From Nitrospirota bacterium (GTDB lineage Bacteria > Nitrospirota > Thermodesulfovibrionia > Thermodesulfovibrionales > JdFR-86): a DNA stretch of 64,000 bases. Under the pieces are notes generated by a model. The model saw only the letters and a list, made by a program, of their open reading frames with translations. It was not told the DNA's origin and searched no databases. Below are positions 15,031 through 64,000 of this stretch, piece by piece. Each line of letters opens with the position of its first letter. The stretch's first letter is position 1. Made by a program: the position numbers and the translations under genes. Location of the stretch: the NCBI GenBank assembly GCA_963721805.1, contig CAVRJY010000001.1, positions 1,152,001 through 1,216,000 of the forward strand, written 5' to 3'.

Positions 15031-15155
15031 GAAAGCGCTCCAAATCGCTTGATACTGCGTCACGTCTCGGAAATCCGTCCTCGATGTACGTCACAGTACA
15101 CCGTCGGACGTTTTCCTCGCCGTTTCCTTGTCTGAAGCCGATTTGGGCGCGCTTT
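15031..15155 (+). repeat. Palindromic repeat element, copy A
   Basis: GAAAGCGCTCCAAATCGCTTGATACTGCGTCA...GTACGTCACAGTACAC...CCTTGTCTGA...GATTT...CGCGCTTT; aligns with copies at 16005-16150, 61471-61594 and 63281-63405. Confidence 0.85.
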
Positions 15156-15442
15156 GCGAAGTACGCGGCCCAGCCGCTGCCTCCGCGCCTCGCGGTCAAC
15201 GGCTTAGTTGAATCTGCCATCGTCGCTTTAGTTATATACATAGCTACCGCGTGCGCGCCCGCGTATTTTTTTAGAGCGTTCAAATGAACAAGCAAAACGC
15301 ACCTTTAACCCTGCGGAAAACTTGCATTTTCTGCGACCTCCCGTGTTCAGGCGTTCAGAAACGTTTTTCACGCTGCCTCCCGGTTTCTGCCTCGCTAATA
15401 TGTCTGCTAAATACTTCATGCGCGATTGTAGAACCAAAGGGC

Positions 15443-15512
15443 GGAACCCGTCCATGGGAACTGGTTCCTGGGAACCAGTTCCATGGAACCGGTTCCTAGG
15501 AGTCGGTTCCGC
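15443..15512. repeat. Five tandem 14-bp units with palindromic consensus GGAACCGGTTCCnn
   Basis: ggaacccgtccatg / ggaactggttcctg / ggaaccagttccat / ggaaccggttccta / ggagtcggttccgc. Confidence 0.85.
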
Positions 15513-15672
15513 TAAGTGGTCAAGCCCAACAGCGGTGCGGGTTTGCGCCTGACCGTAATTAGTTTGTGCACAATCGTCCTATCGCAATTGATATTTAAAT
15601 TGTTGCGGATCGACCTGAGTAGGAGTAAGATTTTTTATGGTATCGATCCATATCTAAAGGAGGACAATTGCT

Positions 15673-15951
15673 ATGGGAGTCGTAGCCAGGTCAAACGAGA
15701 ACCTGAAGAAATGTATCTGTATGAAGTGCCCCAGCTATACGTTCACATGTAAGATGCTGAATATGCCGGGGAATATCATGGCGATGATGGGCGACGTTTC
15801 CAAAAAGATCGAGCTGGAGGCCATGTTTTGTGCGTTTGAAAAAAGCTCATGTATAAAGGAGGAAAAAGGCTGTATCTGCGGGACTTGTGCAGTCCACAAG
15901 GAAAACAAGCTCGAAAAAGGATTTTACTGCATCGCAACCGGCGGAAAATAA
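15673..15951 (+). CDS. Small Cys-rich putative metal-binding protein (DUF2769-like)
   Basis: CICMKCPSY, MFCAFEKSSCI, GCICGTCAVH, FYC; strong AAGGAGG RBS. Confidence 0.8.
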   Translation: MGVVARSNENLKKCICMKCPSYTFTCKMLNMPGNIMAMMGDVSKKIELEAMFCAFEKSSCIKEEKGCICGTCAVHKENKLEKGFYCIATGGK

Positions 15952-16004
15952 GCACTCTCAAAGCCATTTCCTGGGTGTTCCCTGGCCTGGCATGGACAGG
16001 CGTT

Positions 16005-16150
16005 AAATCGCGAGAAATCGCGCCAGACAAGGGGCCAGCTGGCCCTTTCTTCAGGATAGGTGCCCGTGGCACCCGACGGTGTACTGCGACGTACTCCGAG
16101 GGCGCGTCTTTGAATCTCTGACGCAGTATCACGTGATTTGACGCGCTTTG
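16005..16150 (-). repeat. Palindromic repeat element, copy B (inverted relative to A, with extra internal hairpins)
   Basis: Reverse complement CAAAGCGCGTCAAATCACGTGATACTGCGTCA...GTACGTCGCAGTACACCGTCGG...CCTTGTCTGGCGCGATTT. Confidence 0.8.
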
Positions 16151-56576: not shown

Positions 56577-57587
56577 TTACCTTCTTCTGGGAGTTGGTGG
56601 CGTATAGGCCGGCTCCTCTGAGTCGGAGTCGGGGTCGTTGTCGCTGCTGTTGTCTTCGTTGTCAAACTGGTCGTTGTACGCGGGCTCCTCCGAGATAGGC
56701 GGTCTGACCGCCCTCGCGGGCCTCCGGCGCTCGGCGCCCGGTATAGGCATCTGCGGCCGGGACACGCGCATATTGACGGGCCGTCTTACGGGCGTATTGG
56801 GCAGCGCCTTGACTCCCCCGGCCGTTTCGAATGTCTCGAGCATGGTAAGCGCGCCCTTATCGTCATAGTGGAAAAAGTAGTTCTTGATCCCGGCCAGGGC
56901 CATGATGCGTATGGCGGCGCGCTGGAGTTCCATGCCGCTGAACTCGGTCGAGACGGGCAGGTCAGGCGTGTTGCCGTAGAGCTTCACCGTGAAGCCGCCC
57001 TCCTTGGCCAGCGCGTTGAGCACGGCCGACATCGGGGTGTTTACGATCTTCACGCTCGCGAGGCCCCCCTTGACCGAGACCTCCATGGCGGGCATGGCCT
57101 CTGGCGAGGCTTCATTGGCAAGCCCGGCGGTCGCGTTCGCGACGGCTGGGACAGGGCTATTGGCCAAGGCAGCGGCGTCCCTGGCCGCAACGGGCGCGTT
57201 TAGGACCGCTGGATGTTGCGCGGCTGGGGGCGTCTTGGGGAGCGGCCGCAGCCTGCCTGCCGGCGATGAGGGTATCCGCCGCCCCCTGAGCACTTGCGAG
57301 GGCGCCGCCGGTGCGGACGCTATGGGCGGCGCGATCTCGGCCGGTGACGCCTCGTTTGAGATCGCGTTCTGGCTGGCGAAGACCGGAGGTGGCAGCAATG
57401 CCCGGCCCCTTGTACGCGGGGCCCTTGGGTATGTGGCGCGCCGGGGCGGGGATACGGTATTGATGATCTTCGCATTTCTGAACTGGGCGTCGCTGGAATC
57501 CGAGTCGTCCTCGGCCATGGCCGCGCCTGCGGTCAGCACCGCGAGCGTCAGAGCGGCCAGCGCGAGCCCCAGTATCTTAAGCCGCAT
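56577..57587 (-). CDS. Secreted Pro/Ala-rich hypothetical protein with a secretin/STN-N-domain-like segment
   Basis: Signal peptide (AMA-E); low-complexity linker; folded segment VKIVNTPMSAVLNALAKEGGF...; acidic tail; start overlaps the fusA stop. Confidence 0.6.
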   Translation of the reverse strand: MRLKILGLALAALTLAVLTAGAAMAEDDSDSSDAQFRNAKIINTVSPPRRATYPRAPRTRGRALLPPPVFASQNAISNEASPAEIAPPIASAPAAPSQVLRGRRIPSSPAGRLRPLPKTPPAAQHPAVLNAPVAARDAAALANSPVPAVANATAGLANEASPEAMPAMEVSVKGGLASVKIVNTPMSAVLNALAKEGGFTVKLYGNTPDLPVSTEFSGMELQRAAIRIMALAGIKNYFFHYDDKGALTMLETFETAGGVKALPNTPVRRPVNMRVSRPQMPIPGAERRRPARAVRPPISEEPAYNDQFDNEDNSSDNDPDSDSEEPAYTPPTPRRR

Positions 57588-59675
57588 TATTTTTCCTCTT
57601 CATCTTTTTTGCGCTCGTCCACGAGCTTCTGCGTCAGGTGCGAGGGAAGCTCGTCGTAGTGCGAGAATTCCATATGATACGTGCCCCGGCCGGCCGTCAT
57701 GCTCTGGAGATGGTTTGCGTAGGTGAGCATCTCCGACATCGGGACAGCCGCGGATATGACCTGCTTGTTGCCCTGCGCGTCCATGCCGTGCACCTTGCCG
57801 CGCCGCGAGTTCAGGTCCCCGATGATCGTGCCCATCGCCTCCTCGGGCACCGTGATCGCTACCTCCATCATCGGCTCGAGGATGACCGGCTTGGCGTCCA
57901 TGAACGCCTTTTTGATCGCGAAGCTCCCGGCGATCTTAAACGCCATCTCAGAGGAGTCGACCGCGTGGTATGAGCCGTCGAAGACCGATACCCTCAAATC
58001 CACGACCGGGAACCCGGCATAGAGGCCCTTGTGCATCGCCTCCTGTATGCCCTTGTCCACGGCAGGGATGTAGTTGCGCGGTATCGAGCCGCCAACGATC
58101 TTGTCGACGAACTCGTAGCCGGTCCCGCGCGGCAGCGGCTCGATCTTTATCCAGCAGTCGCCGAACTGCCCCTTGCCGCCGGACTGCTTCTTGTACCTTC
58201 CCTGGGCCTCGGACTTCGCGCGGATCGTCTCGCGGTACGGGATCTTCGGGGCCTTCATCAGGACCTCGACGCCGAACTTGCGCTTGAGCTTCTCCAGCGT
58301 TACCTCGAGGTGGACCTGCCCCATCCCGGCGATGTGCATCTCCTTGGCCTCCTCGTCGCGCGTGAAGCGGAGCGTCGGGTCCTCCTCGAGCACCTTGTGC
58401 AGCCCGGTGGCGATCTTGTCCTCGTCGCCCTTGTTCCTGGCCTCGATCGCGTAGGAGATCATCGGCTCGGCGAAGTCCACCGCATCGAATGCGATCTTCT
58501 GGGCCTCGTCCGAAAGCGTGTTGCCGGTGTGCGTGTCTTTGAGCTTCGCCACAGCGCCGATCTCGCCGGGGCCGAGGGACTTGACCGGGGTGTTTTTCTT
58601 GCCCTGCATCACGAATATCTGCCCTATGCGCTCGGAGGCCTCGGTCGAGGAGTTGTAGACCGTGGAGTCCGCGTTGATCGTGCCGGAATAGACGCGGAAG
58701 AGCGAGAGCTTTCCGGCATAGGGGTCTGCGATGGTCTTAAATACGAACGCCGAGAGCGGGGCGTTCGGCTCGGGGCTGCGGGTGGCCTCGGAGCCGTCCT
58801 TGGGGTTCTTGCCGGTGATCGGCATCTTCTCGGCGAACTCCACCGGGGAGGGCAGGCACATCACTATTGCCTCGAGCAGCCTGTGGATGCCCATGTTCTT
58901 GATAGCGGAGCCCACGACGACAGGCACGAATATGCGCTTGCGCGAGCCCTCGCGCATCCCGAGGAGGATCTCGTCCTCGGTGAGCGCGCCGGTCTCCAGG
59001 TATTTCTCTATGAGCGAGTCGTCGCCCTCGGCGGCCTTCTCTATTAGCTTTGTCCTGAGTTCCTCGGCGCGGTCCCTGAGATCGGCGGGTATGTCAACCT
59101 CCTCGGCGGCCTTTCCGGTGCCGGGGCAGAGGAACGACCTCATGGACATCAGGTCCACGACGCCCTTGAAATTCTCGGCCGAGCCCATCGGGAAGTTAAG
59201 CGCGATGGCGGGCTTGCCGTAGGTCTTCTCTATGTTCTGGAGCGCGGCGTCGAAGTCCGCGCCCTCGCGGTCGACCTTGTTGACGAAGACGAGCGTCGGG
59301 ACGCCGAAGTCCTCGGCGTACTTCATGAGCCGCTCGGTCTCGCCCTTGATGCCGCTCTCAGCGCTCGCGAGCACGACCGCGCCGTCCGCGACCCTGAGGG
59401 CGCCCCTAGCGTCCTCGAGGAAGTTTATGAAGTCCGGGCGTGTCGATGATCGTGATATTGTGGCCCTTCCACGTGCAGTGCGATGGGGACGACGAGATCG
59501 TGATCTTGCGGCTGATCTCCTCCGGCTCGAAGTCGGTTACGGTCGTTCCGTCAAGCACGGTGCCGAGGCGGTCTATCGCGCCCGCGCCGAATAGCATCGC
59601 CTCGACCAGAGTGGTCTTGCCCGAGTTGCTGTGTCCGATTACCGCGATGTTCCTGATTTTGTCGATCTCTGCCAT
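57587..59675 (-). CDS. fusA: Elongation factor G paralogue (EF-G2 type), with an apparent +1 frameshift at ~59433
   Basis: IRNIAVIGHSNSGKTT, DTPG, NKVD, GMGQVHLE, KKQSGGKGQFG, DGSYHAVDSSE; removing one base gives DTPGFINFLEDARGALRVADGAVV. Confidence 0.9.
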
Positions 59676-60637: not shown

Positions 60638-61398
60638 ATGCCTGCAAAGAAGAAGAGTATAAAGAAGAAAGCCCCGGCCGCCAAGGCCGCGCCCAAGAAG
60701 GCGGTTGCCAAGAAAACCGTGACGAAGAAAGCTGCGCCCAAAAAGGCCGTTATTGCCAAGAAGGCGGCACCGGCGAAGCAGGCCAAGAAGGCGTGGCCGT
60801 CCCGGTGAAGAAGGCCGTTAAAAAGGCCGCGCCGGTTAAGGCTGCTCCAAAGAAGGTAGTCCCGAAGAAGGCAGCGCCGAAGAAGGCAGTCCCCAAGAAG
60901 GCAGTCCCCAAGAAGGCAGTCCCCAAGAAGACCGCTCCTGTTAAGGTCGCCCCGAAGAAGGTTGCGCCAGTTAAGGCACCGGTCGCACCGCCGCAGCCCG
61001 TGGTCGCGGCCCCGAAGGGCCCGCCGAGGAAACTCACCGCGCGCGACAAGCGCATCCTTAAGATCAAAAATACGCTCCTTATGCAGAAGCATACGCTGCT
61101 GAGCGAGGCCGAGGTGGCCATGAACGCCCTGCCCGAGCAGACGATATTCCCGGACTTGGGGGACCAGGCCTCGGCCGAGACCGACCGCAACTTCATGCTC
61201 CGCCTTCGCGGCCGCGAGCAGAAGCTTATAAAGAAGATCGAAGAGGCCATCGAGCGCATCGACACCTGGACCTACGGCATGTGCGACAACTGCGGCGATG
61301 AGATCGAGATCAGCAGGCTGGAGGCCCGTCCGGTCACGACGATGTGTATCGACTGCAAGACCGAACAGGAAGAGGAAGAGAGACTGCAGGGGGATTAA
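60638..61398 (+). CDS. dksA: RNA polymerase-binding protein DksA with a histone-H1-like Lys/Ala/Pro N-terminal extension; apparent -1 frameshift at ~60793
   Basis: PDLGDQAS, CDNC..RLEARP..CIDC; upstream frame MPAKKKSIKKKAPAAKAAPKK... joins if one G is added (AAG GCG GTG GCC). Confidence 0.9.
60880..60930 (+). repeat. 15-bp coding tandem repeat AAGAAGGCAGTCCCC x3 (KKAVP)
   Basis: Directly visible. Confidence 0.8.
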
Positions 61399-61413: not shown

Positions 61414-61446
61414 AAAAGGCGGAGCAGCAATGCTCCGCCTTTTTTT
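61414..61446 (+). terminator. Rho-independent terminator after dksA
   Basis: AAAAGGCGGAGCA-GCAA-TGCTCCGCCTTTTTTT. Confidence 0.9.
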
Positions 61447-61470: not shown

Positions 61471-61639
61471 GAAAGCCGCGCTAAAGTCGCGTGATACTGC
61501 GTCACAACTCGCAGCCCGATCCTCAACGTATGTCCATATACGCCTCCGGTCGGTCTGCTCGTTGTTCCTTGTCTGACGCGATTTATCGCGCTTTGGTGAT
61601 GCCTATGCGGGATCGTGCGAGCGGTCAACGGCATTGATT
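61471..61639 (+). repeat. Palindromic repeat copy C (61471-61594) plus inner 29-bp module (61611-61639); left arm of the ATPase cassette
   Basis: GAAAGCCGCGCTAAAGTCGCGTGATACTGCGTCA...CCTTGTCTGACGCGATTTATCGCGCTTT, then GATCGTGCGAGCGGTCAACGGCATTGATT. Confidence 0.88.
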
Positions 61640-61798
61640 TATTCCTCATTCTTTCGGATATACACTGCTCCGACGATGCCCACCCGTTTTCGATGGAATT
61701 TATTTGGTTAAATTGCATCTGATGACTATTTTATCTGTCTCAATATACATGTGATATACTACTGCAATAATATGGTAGACCATAGAAAGGGTTAATCA

Positions 61799-63178
61799 GT
61801 GCTGCGTTATCAGGATATATTTGTCCCTGGAGGATTTCCTCATTATACTTATAGTTCGCGTATAGAATTGAAGCTTGAAGAGAAGCTGTCTGCTGTTAAA
61901 GAAAATTTATGTAAGCTTGTCGCAGTTACTGGGCAAACGAAATGCGGTAAAACCGTTCTTGCGCGAAAAGTTTTTCCACGAGATACTTCAATTTGGATAG
62001 ATGGAGGTACAGTTTCTGAGGAAAATCATTTCTGGCAAGTTATCGTTGACCAGCTAGATCTATTTCAGTTAGTAGGCAGAGAGGTCACGGAAGATTCGAC
62101 TAGTAAGTTTGGTGGCAAGGGAACAGCTGAAGCCAATTTCTTTGTCGCTAAAGGTTCTGGTGAGTTAAGTGCCGGAATAGAGAAATCTCATGGCTCATCG
62201 AAAAAAAGCAGTCGATCGTTATCCTCACGTGTCGTAGCTCTCCGTGGCTTGCGTATTAATATCCCACTGGTAATAGATGACTTTCACTACATCCCTCGCG
62301 AAATACAAGGAACTTTAATACGTGCTTTGAAACCCCTTATTTTCGATGGCCTGCCTGTTGTTATCATCGCCATCCCTCACCGTCGTTACGATGCGTTAAA
62401 AGTAGAGAAAGAAATGACTGGTAGAATCTCACCAATCGATATACCTACGTGGTCGGATACAGAGCTTCAATTTATCTCAAAAACTGGCTTTGAACTTCTT
62501 AATTATAGAGTATTATCAGGTTCCTCCGATCAGCATTCTTCGGAATCTGTTGGCAGTCCTTTATGGTCGGCGACAGATATGAAGAGCATTGCGGGAGCAG
62601 GTATTGGATTGCTTAATTACAGGGTACCTGCAGAGTTCGAAAAGCAACTTTCATCAGAATCTATTGGTAGTCCTCATCTGATGCAGGATTTTTGCCGTGG
62701 CCTATGCAAGCTGCTAAATATTTCGCATAAGAAGTCACCTGAAGTACTAGTGGTGAGCAGAAATCAAGTTGAAAAAGTTTTTCGGGATGTTGCAGAGACC
62801 ATTGGACGGCCAATATTCGAGAAGCTAGCACATGGACCTCGCCAGCGTACAGATCGTATTCAGCGGAGATTAAAGGATGGACGTACTGTAGATATATACG
62901 GATTAGTATTATCTGCACTTGCCTATATTAGACCAGGTTTGGTTAGTCTTGAGTATGAGGCGCTTCGCGCTGCAATCAAGGCTGTTTCGGCGGAGCATAT
63001 ACCTCAGTTGCATGAAGTTGAGCGTGTTCTAAAATACATGACTACTATTGCATCTACAGATCAGAGTTCATCACCAGTAATTGATTTTGATGGAGCAGAT
63101 AAAAGGCTGCATATAACGGATCCATTTTTTGCTTTTTATTTACGTTGGGGTGATATTTCAGAAGATGTTTTTGAGTGA
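61799..63178 (+). CDS. Orphan P-loop (AAA+/STAND-like) ATPase, AT-rich
   Basis: Walker A GQTKCGKT, Walker B LVIDDFH, GSPHLMQ, C-terminal DPFFAFYLRW; base composition clearly more AT-rich than the flanks. Confidence 0.85.
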   Translation: MLRYQDIFVPGGFPHYTYSSRIELKLEEKLSAVKENLCKLVAVTGQTKCGKTVLARKVFPRDTSIWIDGGTVSEENHFWQVIVDQLDLFQLVGREVTEDSTSKFGGKGTAEANFFVAKGSGELSAGIEKSHGSSKKSSRSLSSRVVALRGLRINIPLVIDDFHYIPREIQGTLIRALKPLIFDGLPVVIIAIPHRRYDALKVEKEMTGRISPIDIPTWSDTELQFISKTGFELLNYRVLSGSSDQHSSESVGSPLWSATDMKSIAGAGIGLLNYRVPAEFEKQLSSESIGSPHLMQDFCRGLCKLLNISHKKSPEVLVVSRNQVEKVFRDVAETIGRPIFEKLAHGPRQRTDRIQRRLKDGRTVDIYGLVLSALAYIRPGLVSLEYEALRAAIKAVSAEHIPQLHEVERVLKYMTTIASTDQSSSPVIDFDGADKRLHITDPFFAFYLRWGDISEDVFE

Positions 63179-63236
63179 AGTGTGTATTTGTAAACGCCTA
63201 CTGAAAGAGGTGAAAAGTAGACAATTTTGTTTTTCT

Positions 63237-63405
63237 AATCAATGCTGTTGACCGCTCGCACGATCACTCTGAAGCAGCTTAAAGCGCGATAAATCGCGTC
63301 AGACTAGGAACGACGAGGAAAACGTCCGCAAGTGTACTGAGACGTACTCTGGAGGACGGTTTCCGATGCCGTGACAACGTATCACGCGTATTTAGCGCGA
63401 CTTTC
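63237..63405 (-). repeat. Inner 29-bp module (63237-63265) plus palindromic repeat copy D (63281-63405); right arm of the ATPase cassette
   Basis: AATCAATGCTGTTGACCGCTCGCACGATC is 28/29 identical to the reverse complement of 61611-61639; AAAGCGCGATAAATCGCGTCAGAC matches the end of copy C. Confidence 0.88.
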
Positions 63406-63411
63406 AGAAAA

Positions 63412-64000
63412 CTACTCTCGGTCGCGACGTATCCCCATCTTCTCCGATAAAGAGTCGCCAAGTATATTGAAGCTCAGCGCCGCGAGCATTATCGCGAGGC
63501 CGGGGAAAACGGTCATCCACGGCGCGGACAGCATGTAAGATCTAGACGAGCTGATCATCGCGCCCCAGCTCGGCGACGGCGGCTGGGTGCCGAGCCCAAG
63601 GAAGCTCAGCGAGGCCTCGGTGAGTATGAACCCACCGACCTTGAGCCCCATCATAACGAGCCCAAGCGGTATGCACTGAGGAAGCAGGTGCACAGTGATG
63701 ATGCGCATATGCCCGCAGCCTATCGCGCGCGCCGCGTCAATGAACGGTTCAGAGCGGAGCTTCAGGACGTGGCTTCGGATCAGCCTCGCAAACGATGCCC
63801 ATCCGACCGAGGCTATCGCGATCATCGAGGTATAGGTGCCGGGCGGGAGCACGACCGCTATCCCGATAGCCAGCAGCAGCGAGGGGAACGAGAGCACGAG
63901 GTCGGCCATCGCGACGAGCGCGGTATCTACCCTTCCGCCGAAATACCCGGCGCTGAGCCCTACCGCAAGCCCGATGCCCAGCGATATCAGCGCCGCCAGA
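63412..64000 (-). CDS. Peptide/nickel ABC transporter permease (OppC/DppC family), 5' partial
   Basis: GYFGG..D, FIDAARAIG EAA loop, EASLSFLGLG, PSWG.MI. Confidence 0.92.
   Translation of the reverse strand, partial: LAALISLGIGLAVGLSAGYFGGRVDTALVAMADLVLSFPSLLLAIGIAVVLPPGTYTSMIAIASVGWASFARLIRSHVLKLRSEPFIDAARAIGCGHMRIITVHLLPQCIPLGLVMMGLKVGGFILTEASLSFLGLGTQPPSPSWGAMISSSRSYMLSAPWMTVFPGLAIMLAALSFNILGDSLSEKMGIRRDRE

Follow-up and report, generated by a model that had tools for sequence, protein, structure and literature searches.

Polar hairpin repeats bound low-GC gene slots in the genome of a Nitrospirota bacterium

Introduction

How did an AT-rich ATPase gene come to lie between two inverted hairpin arms, with host-like genes on either side? 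The gene is found in a stretch of 64,000 nucleotides of a Nitrospirota bacterium (GenBank assembly GCA_963721805.1, contig CAVRJY010000001.1, positions 1,152,001 to 1,216,000), here called the window, and coordinates below are those of the window unless a contig is named. A preliminary description, made from the sequence alone, had taken the gene and its arms for a non-autonomous cassette, inserted or exchanged through hairpin repeats on which an enzyme acts in trans, by REP/REPIN-, HUH- or tyrosine-recombinase-like chemistry.

Results

The ATPase slot and the same locus in relatives

The ATPase unit sits between two host genes. On the left is dksA (60793..61398, + strand; Pfam DksA_N and zf-dskA_traR), followed by its terminator; on the right, in convergent orientation, is an ABC permease gene (63412..64000, − strand; Pfam BPD_transp_1), the neighbour of dksA in relatives as well. 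An intrinsic-terminator-like hairpin lies 3′ of dksA (61414..61443, +), and the left arm starts 28 bp on. The inverted arms, 61471-61639 and 63237-63405, are 76.6% identical over 171 columns (BLASTN E 1.6e-26), and each consists of a 125-bp hairpin core followed by a 44-bp tail. On the left, the core (61471..61595, +; a member of the repeat family at E 2.9e-32) has its head towards host DNA, and the type II tail (61596..61639, +) faces the cargo and carries the conserved GGTCAACGGCWT motif at its end. On the right, the tail (63237..63280, −), also of type II, again faces the cargo, and 6 bp separate the head of the core (63281..63405, −) from the permease stop codon. The final 29 bp of the tail form a module identical at 28 of 29 positions between the arms, and the DNA fold of the outer 125 bp of each arm gave z-scores of −3.1 to −4.6 (200 shuffles, either strand; −3.1/−4.6 for the left core). 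Between the arms, a 459-aa P-loop ATPase of AAA_16/AAA_22-like type is encoded (61799..63178, +) with a GC/GC3 of 0.42/0.31, compared with 0.59/0.84 for dksA and 0.62/0.79 for the permease gene. Thus the inverted arms of about 170 bp, the self-complementary element of about 125 bp in each, the nearly identical inner module and the AT-rich cargo between host-like neighbours were all as the preliminary description had claimed.

A second, shorter facing pair is present in the window (15032..16149), made of a full arm (15032-15206) and a tail-less arm (16003-16149), with a fragment of the inner module M described below (15228-15389). Module M is absent from the ATPase slot.

Homologues of the ATPase, about 418 aa long and 56-67% identical, are scattered over phyla, and a search of 250 further genomes from the phylum did not find the gene. 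Both the ATPase and its homologues matched the candidate defence model PDC-S59 weakly, no viral loci carrying ATPase relatives were found, and plasmid matches reached only 28-34%. The ATPase is most likely a passenger, a defence gene. It contains an in-frame tandem duplication of 38 codons (62450..62677, +), whose copies agree at 19 of 37 residues and which is absent from all 8 aligned homologues.

To compare the locus, 30 genomes of relatives from outside the genus were searched, and 29 dksA loci were returned. The permease gene was present at 17 of them, no more than 117 bp from dksA in 16 and 424 bp away in one, and the remaining 12 had no permease within 1.5 kb. Neither the repeat nor the ATPase occurred at any of the 29 loci, so that 16 relatives show the empty state, with dksA and permease adjacent. 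Because the relatives' dksA loci lack both and the ATPase was not found in the 250 other genomes searched, the whole arm-ATPase-arm unit is an acquisition. The cargo is foreign and missing from this locus in the relatives, as had been proposed, and the finding that would have spoken against it, an ATPase conserved at the locus in relatives without the repeats, was not made. In one relative (G028), the dksA-permease gap (L032:1830-2290) holds a distantly similar hairpin element together with a second inverted-repeat element, and by eye the same gap has been used there independently.

Polarity and pairing of the repeat across the genome

An iterated nhmmer profile search of the genome under study (G000; 2.78 Mb, 94% complete) gave 239 hits, including a few opposite-strand duplicates or stand-alone relatives; 175 hits were full length, with a unit of about 175 bp. 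No match to the repeat was present in Rfam. By gene calls that rest on a crude, purpose-made ORF model, 162 of the 175 full copies overlap no called ORF. The core stem is conserved through compensatory changes; it has 18 pairs, with 96% of cells paired and 272 double changes in 147 copies, counts that are inflated by subfamily ancestry. Among truncated copies, 12 of 27 break at the central loop.

The two sides of the repeat differ in composition. The mean GC of the flanking 500 bp is 0.498 on the tail side and 0.603 on the head side, the tail side being lower in 157 of 175 copies, and GC falls below 0.50 on 90 tail sides but on only 2 head sides (background, 6.6% of windows). The drop is immediate at the tail, and the tail motif is almost invariant right up to the joint. 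When neighbouring copies within 5 kb were paired, 47 of the 78 pairs had their tails inward (p 5e-11); 39 of these 47 enclosed DNA with GC below 0.5, against none of the 31 other pairs, and none of the 20 close direct-orientation pairs enclosed low-GC cargo. With spacings up to 7 kb and partial arms admitted, about 58 slots result, three of them nearly empty. The repeat thus marks low-GC DNA in a non-random manner throughout the genome, and the contrary outcome foreseen in the preliminary description, repeats scattered in random orientation with no enrichment around low-GC genes, did not occur.

Heads face the 3′ end of a gene in 118 of 175 copies, 92 of them within 30 bp; the other 57 face a 5′ end, with the polarity kept. 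Slots lie between convergent genes in 23 of 58 cases, compared with 13% of all gene pairs. Unpaired full copies number 68 of 175, of which 40 have tail-side DNA of host-like GC; conversely, no tail borders 113 of the 199 low-GC patches. Contig C2 contains two large AT-rich islands (about 78 kb) without a single copy, with about 7 expected at genome density, which indicates that the repeat is not simply seeking AT-rich DNA. Paired arms are hardly more alike than random pairs (0.759 vs 0.747). A rule pairing type I with type II arms was rejected, as the 49 pairs comprised 22 I/II, 20 I/I, 5 II/II and 2 unclassified.

Some copies are rearranged. Partial junction duplications are seen at C1:1056547-1057310, where tandem tail-only units lie within one slot, and at C1:456398-456634, where three head fragments occur. 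A core-only unit with TG...CA ends is nested in arms or at the start of M (C1:1546530-1546657, C4:138188, C2:113234, C2:368195 and C6:7058); it is present in C1 and missing from the orthologous arm of C6.

Cargo content and the inner module M

Of 134 distinct cargo ORFs, 100 were scanned after 34 likely shadow frames had been dropped, and a Pfam family was assigned to 52. Toxin-antitoxin-type ORFs numbered 17 (with DUF assignments of our own), and further families were restriction-modification enzymes, KAP NTPase, HNH, PLD, HEPN, Abi_C and IS transposases. A few host-like genes were also present. The contents of the slots, rich in toxin-antitoxin and defence genes, are mostly unrelated to each other. 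A small toxin-antitoxin-like gene pair occurs at both C5:81331-81821 and C4:351453-351945 (87% identical), with a tail beside one only.

Module M is a non-coding sequence of 345 bp with 57 hits, 48 of which follow immediately on a tail and point the same way. In 32 of the 58 slots one arm carries M, and in none do both arms (4.4 expected, P 0.01).

Allelic slots with different cargo

The small contigs of the assembly include diverged copies of regions of C1, which allowed slots to be compared between alleles. Contig C9 aligns with C1:844383-857787 (DNA identity 80-85%; protein identity 60-100%). Within this region, the slot at C9:10228-12448 corresponds to that at C1:854812-857159: the flanks are 83-85% identical, the arms stand at the same two positions in the same orientations, and the modules M are orthologous (90.5% identical, with a private insertion common to both). 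The cargo is unrelated except for one 60-bp patch, C9 carrying DUF4019 and others and C1 carrying DUF5677 together with a HepT gene. The breaks fall about 20 bp beyond the left tail and exactly at the end of M.

In a second case, C6 and the end of C1 overlap with 98% identity and differ in cargo. The left arm is present in C6 only and the right arm is common to both, and the two sequences begin to diverge about 50 bp within the upstream host gene, a pattern that fits what would be expected from allelic replacement by recombination. In addition, a 191-aa flavodoxin-like gene (named by eye) occurs at two loci with 88% identity, and the homology starts and ends at repeats.

The arm bodies have been overwritten in place by other copies, because three orthologous arm pairs are only 64%, 78% and 79% alike, with adjoining DNA at 86-92%, and a closer non-orthologous copy (81-95%) exists elsewhere for all three. 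The borders are therefore fixed, the cargo replaced and the arms overwritten, and no signature of unit transposition was observed. The exchange of cargo between fixed arms, put forward in the preliminary description, gains support from the C9/C1 pair. The evidence for exchange comprises two slots and one duplication, and it may also reflect independent fillings in a diverged lineage: C9, which may be a co-binned relative or an old duplication, is about 15% diverged, a distance at which two independent fillings look the same as replacement, and only two allelic comparisons are available. Regions of C1 also recur in diverged form, at 80-95% identity, on contigs C3, C7 and C8; more than one strain or relative is mixed in the assembly, despite a stated contamination of 0.71%. 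Neither excision nor an empty form showed up in three read sets, of which one gave thin contigs of the same strain, at a coverage too thin to show either.

Target duplications and candidate enzymes

The preliminary description had noted no obvious target-site duplication, and the wider search agreed: outside the heads, no duplication of 4-10 bp (shifts 0-2) exceeded a shuffled null in any of 49 pairs. No partner-specific overlap or duplication was found inside the tails of 46 slots either. With no target duplication, and pair arms no more alike than random, a cassette moving as a whole unit was not borne out.

The chemistries suggested earlier fared no better. No RAYT was found in the genome, the best score against the RAYT model being 40 bits for a cut-off of 80, and the six Y1 hits all belong to one IS200 with hairpin ends of its own, in six identical copies of 601 bp (L001-L006), each ending on both sides in the same 24-bp hairpin; REP/REPIN- or HUH-like chemistry is not supported by these searches. 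No IS200 copy is farther than about 1.2 kb from repeat copies, and some adjoin the M end. Among seven tyrosine recombinases, the four scanned were XerD, a XerC-like protein and two others at 64 and 35 bits, none reaching the 265-bit cut-off for an integron integrase, which lends no support to tyrosine-recombinase-like chemistry; the other three appear phage-type by eye. A dif-like site occurs once genome-wide at up to 4 mismatches from the dif consensus, and none lies at the arms.

Family searches of the genome for IS110, IS630, DDE_Tnp_1, DDE_Tnp_1_2 and IS1182-type transposases, reverse transcriptase and Ku gave no match, and no IS4/5/1182 transposase was found; the search for an IS91-type Y2 transposase matched neither this genome nor any control genome. 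The only serine recombinase lies in an island without repeats, and GIY-YIG is found only in a 654-aa, UvrC-sized frame. By eye, no enzyme recurs in the tail-side ORFs of the 68 unpaired copies. ComEC is encoded.

The resident IS30 (7 copies), IS481 (10 copies) and IS200 (6 copies) were rejected as candidates; each element has ends unlike those of the repeat and looks like a passenger in arms, modules or cargo. The IS30 element (1096 bp; C1:387254-388349 and six more) occupies one fixed position in the repeat core in 5 of its 7 copies. The ten copies of IS481 (C1:81101 and nine more) are near-identical, and most of those seen adjoin a short palindromic GGAACTGGTTCC-type array, which comes after truncated M modules.

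Origin and distribution of the repeat

Two contigs of another organism (L114 and L138) carry the core and tail between terminal inverted repeats beginning TAGAGCAT, whose TAG is, in our reading, the apparent stop codon of a neighbouring gene, once at each end. Terminal inverted repeats are also present in about 8 stand-alone copies of the genome under study, and stand-alone cores with other terminal repeats occur in G000, G003 and G013. None of the 175 polar copies has retained the ancestral terminus at either end. The ancestor of the repeat was a MITE; here its terminal inverted repeats are gone, and the hairpin core and polar tail remain.

A related hairpin is known from Geobacter metallireducens (Aklujkar et al. 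2009). That report describes Gmet_R1001-R1024 as 24 copies of an intergenic hairpin of about 113 bp, predicted to give short RNAs of no assigned function, and class 1 paired 'I' sites that lie 80-145 bp apart and enclose no genes (PMC2700814). The central palindrome of Gmet_R1001-R1024, which is also that of the stand-alone cores, matches 5 core relatives in our genome with at most 2 mismatches, and the CTGCGT...CCTTG skeleton around it agrees by eye. The hairpin superfamily is already published as unexplained 'short RNAs', and the intergenic hairpin and central palindrome are common to both families, but no polar tail, module M or bracketing of foreign genes is reported there (PMC2700814).

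No description of the polar, cargo-bounding form was found in the literature covered, which largely excludes subscription journals. An exact pattern found no polar form in 300 genomes of the class, and six pattern hits in GTDB included no real copy. Viral sequences contained no stretch with the repeat family, none of their 29 pattern hits being a real copy, and no member was found in plasmids. Two of 27 metagenome hits to the family were real, and three distant MITE hits occurred in 2 of 60 relatives.

Comparison with known systems

REP and REPIN elements are intergenic hairpins present in hundreds of copies, often near gene 3′ ends, and particular IS elements insert into them. The spacers within REPIN doublets are short, in contrast to the kilobase cargo of the slots, and no RAYT gene flanked by the repeat was found. 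Integron cassettes carry toxin-antitoxin pairs, defence genes and, in about half of cases, genes without a family, and their sites are hairpins with conserved unpaired bases. The slots resemble integrons in cargo spectrum and in a hairpin with conserved unpaired bases, but they are inverted pairs at about 58 loci instead of a direct-repeat array; there are no direct-orientation attC arrays, and no IntI was found. The repeat copies are short, non-coding, multicopy and intergenic as MITEs are, although terminal inverted repeats are seen in L114 and L138 and not in the polar copies. Composite transposons differ in that the slots have neither a flanking direct repeat nor near-identical bounding copies.

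MITE composites (TIME-COMP and IMU) resemble the slots in having two inverted non-autonomous elements around cargo and, putatively for the slots, an enzyme in trans; unit movement, 5-6-bp direct repeats and intact outer termini are described for them (PMC13367494), whereas the slots have no direct repeats, no intact outer termini, and arms that differ by about 25%. In Acinetobacter, pdif modules place toxin-antitoxin or defence-like modules between inverse sites served by host enzymes in trans, these being short XerC/XerD sites (PMC9771954). The arms here are 175-bp hairpins, no XerC/XerD dif-like site lies at the slot borders, and the single dif-like site is unlike the tail.

The closest parallels in behaviour come from Neisseria. 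Two reports describe NIME/dRS3 as intergenic mosaic repeats at syntenic positions, with a proposed exchange of neighbouring genes, and minimal mobile elements as alternative cargo that is spread by recombination and has conserved genes on either side (PMC1797815, PMC3787668). Both allelic slots (2 of 2) show such alternative cargo; recombination in flanking genes fits C6/C1, and C9/C1 breaks at the inner ends instead. According to the same reports, dRS3 is a 20-bp repeat whose arrays adjoin native surface genes, and it is conserved flanking genes, not terminal repeats, that define minimal mobile elements (PMC1797815, PMC3787668); the slots differ in having long polar arms precisely at both cargo borders. 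By analogy, the slots may work like NIME arrays or minimal mobile elements and look like a MITE-bounded composite. On the features compared here, they fall outside composite transposons, REPINs, integrons and pdif modules.

Discussion

We propose, with about even confidence, that the slots are fixed exchange sites, where a putative activity would make the joints at the inner ends and host recombination would spread the resulting alleles. The arms, derived from a small non-autonomous MITE, would form the fixed borders of a gene slot. New cargo would be joined at the inner ends, either at the tail motif or at the far end of M inside one arm only, by an activity that may recognise these ends and probably the hairpin, and filled alleles would then spread among strains when RecA-type recombination acts on the arms and on the host genes beside them, probably following natural transformation, in line with the presence of ComEC. 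We infer an enzyme acting in trans at the arms, and place its joining activity at the inner ends because the tail end is invariant, the M end is sharp and M is one-sided. Against this model stand 11 family searches of a 94%-complete genome with no candidate enzyme, the 68 unpaired copies among 175, and the lack of inner duplication in 46 slots.

If the repeats served only as homology anchors, RecA would act at one arm and illegitimate joining at the other end, with no dedicated enzyme, and polarity would arise from head-side changes damaging the adjacent host gene. Such a scheme accounts for overwritten arms, mosaic motif combinations, the repeat-bounded duplication, the C6/C1 tract that starts in a host gene and the preponderance of heads close to gene 3′ ends (118 of 175, 92 within 30 bp), and it agrees with the presence of ComEC and with no enzyme having been found; NIME arrays and minimal mobile elements have been proposed to act so (PMC1797815, PMC3787668). 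We consider it unlikely, given that C9/C1 breaks exactly at the end of the orthologous M and not within homology, that the tail motif is invariant to the joint, that M is never on both arms, and that the 57 heads facing a 5′ end keep the polarity.

The bracketing could also be secondary, a polar MITE or 3′-end RNA element having settled at the edges of pre-existing islands, with cargo turnover as ordinary hot-spot behaviour between convergent genes. We judge this improbable: the two AT-rich islands of C2 would be expected to hold about seven copies and hold none, the GC drop is immediate at the tail, and arm positions and M persist through a change of cargo, even though 23 of 58 slots lie between convergent genes (13% of gene pairs), in L114 and L138 the terminal TAG of the intact element is by our reading a neighbour's stop codon, the dksA gap of G028 carries an independent hairpin of distant similarity (by eye) and many copies are unpaired. 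Quite improbable, in our view, is that the slots are fossil MITE-bounded composite transposons, inserted whole by a since-lost transposase and decayed at the ends later. The relatives without the whole unit at dksA, the terminal inverted repeats of the ancestral element and the known movement of cargo in trans by inversely oriented MITE pairs (PMC13367494) would suit such an origin; yet there is no target duplication, no ancestral terminus in 175 copies, no excess likeness of paired arms (0.759 vs 0.747) and no IS630, IS4/5 or IS1182 transposase found, and the cargo differs between fixed arms.

A domesticated integron-like system, scattered along the chromosome, is conceivable though somewhat doubtful, in which a host or unannotated enzyme would recognise the hairpin-plus-tail end and the M end and swap or capture single foreign genes at about 58 separate slots. 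If true, the population would keep its defence cassettes as a library dispersed over many loci, and no known family of integrases or transposases would be involved. An enzyme acting at the inner ends would represent a new recombination activity; if there is none, immobilised MITEs would have turned into recombination anchors governing defence-gene turnover. In either case, a single repeat in a single orientation bounds about 58 small accessory islets of a 2.8-Mb genome, and alleles of a slot differ in cargo between borders that stay. This organisation of acquired genes fits no known system tested, and it suggests a role, open to testing, for the hairpins noted without function in Geobacter in 2009. 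What is new here is the allelic comparison, with C9 and C1 sharing arm positions around unrelated cargo.

Two reading frames near the ATPase slot appear interrupted. A Lys/Ala-rich N-terminal extension of dksA (60638-60810), with an ATG at 60638, is in a frame different from that of the remaining gene, and the change near 60790 is probably a frameshift or a sequencing indel. An EF-G-like gene (57587-59675) appears split into frames of 89 and 595 aa, probably by another frameshift.
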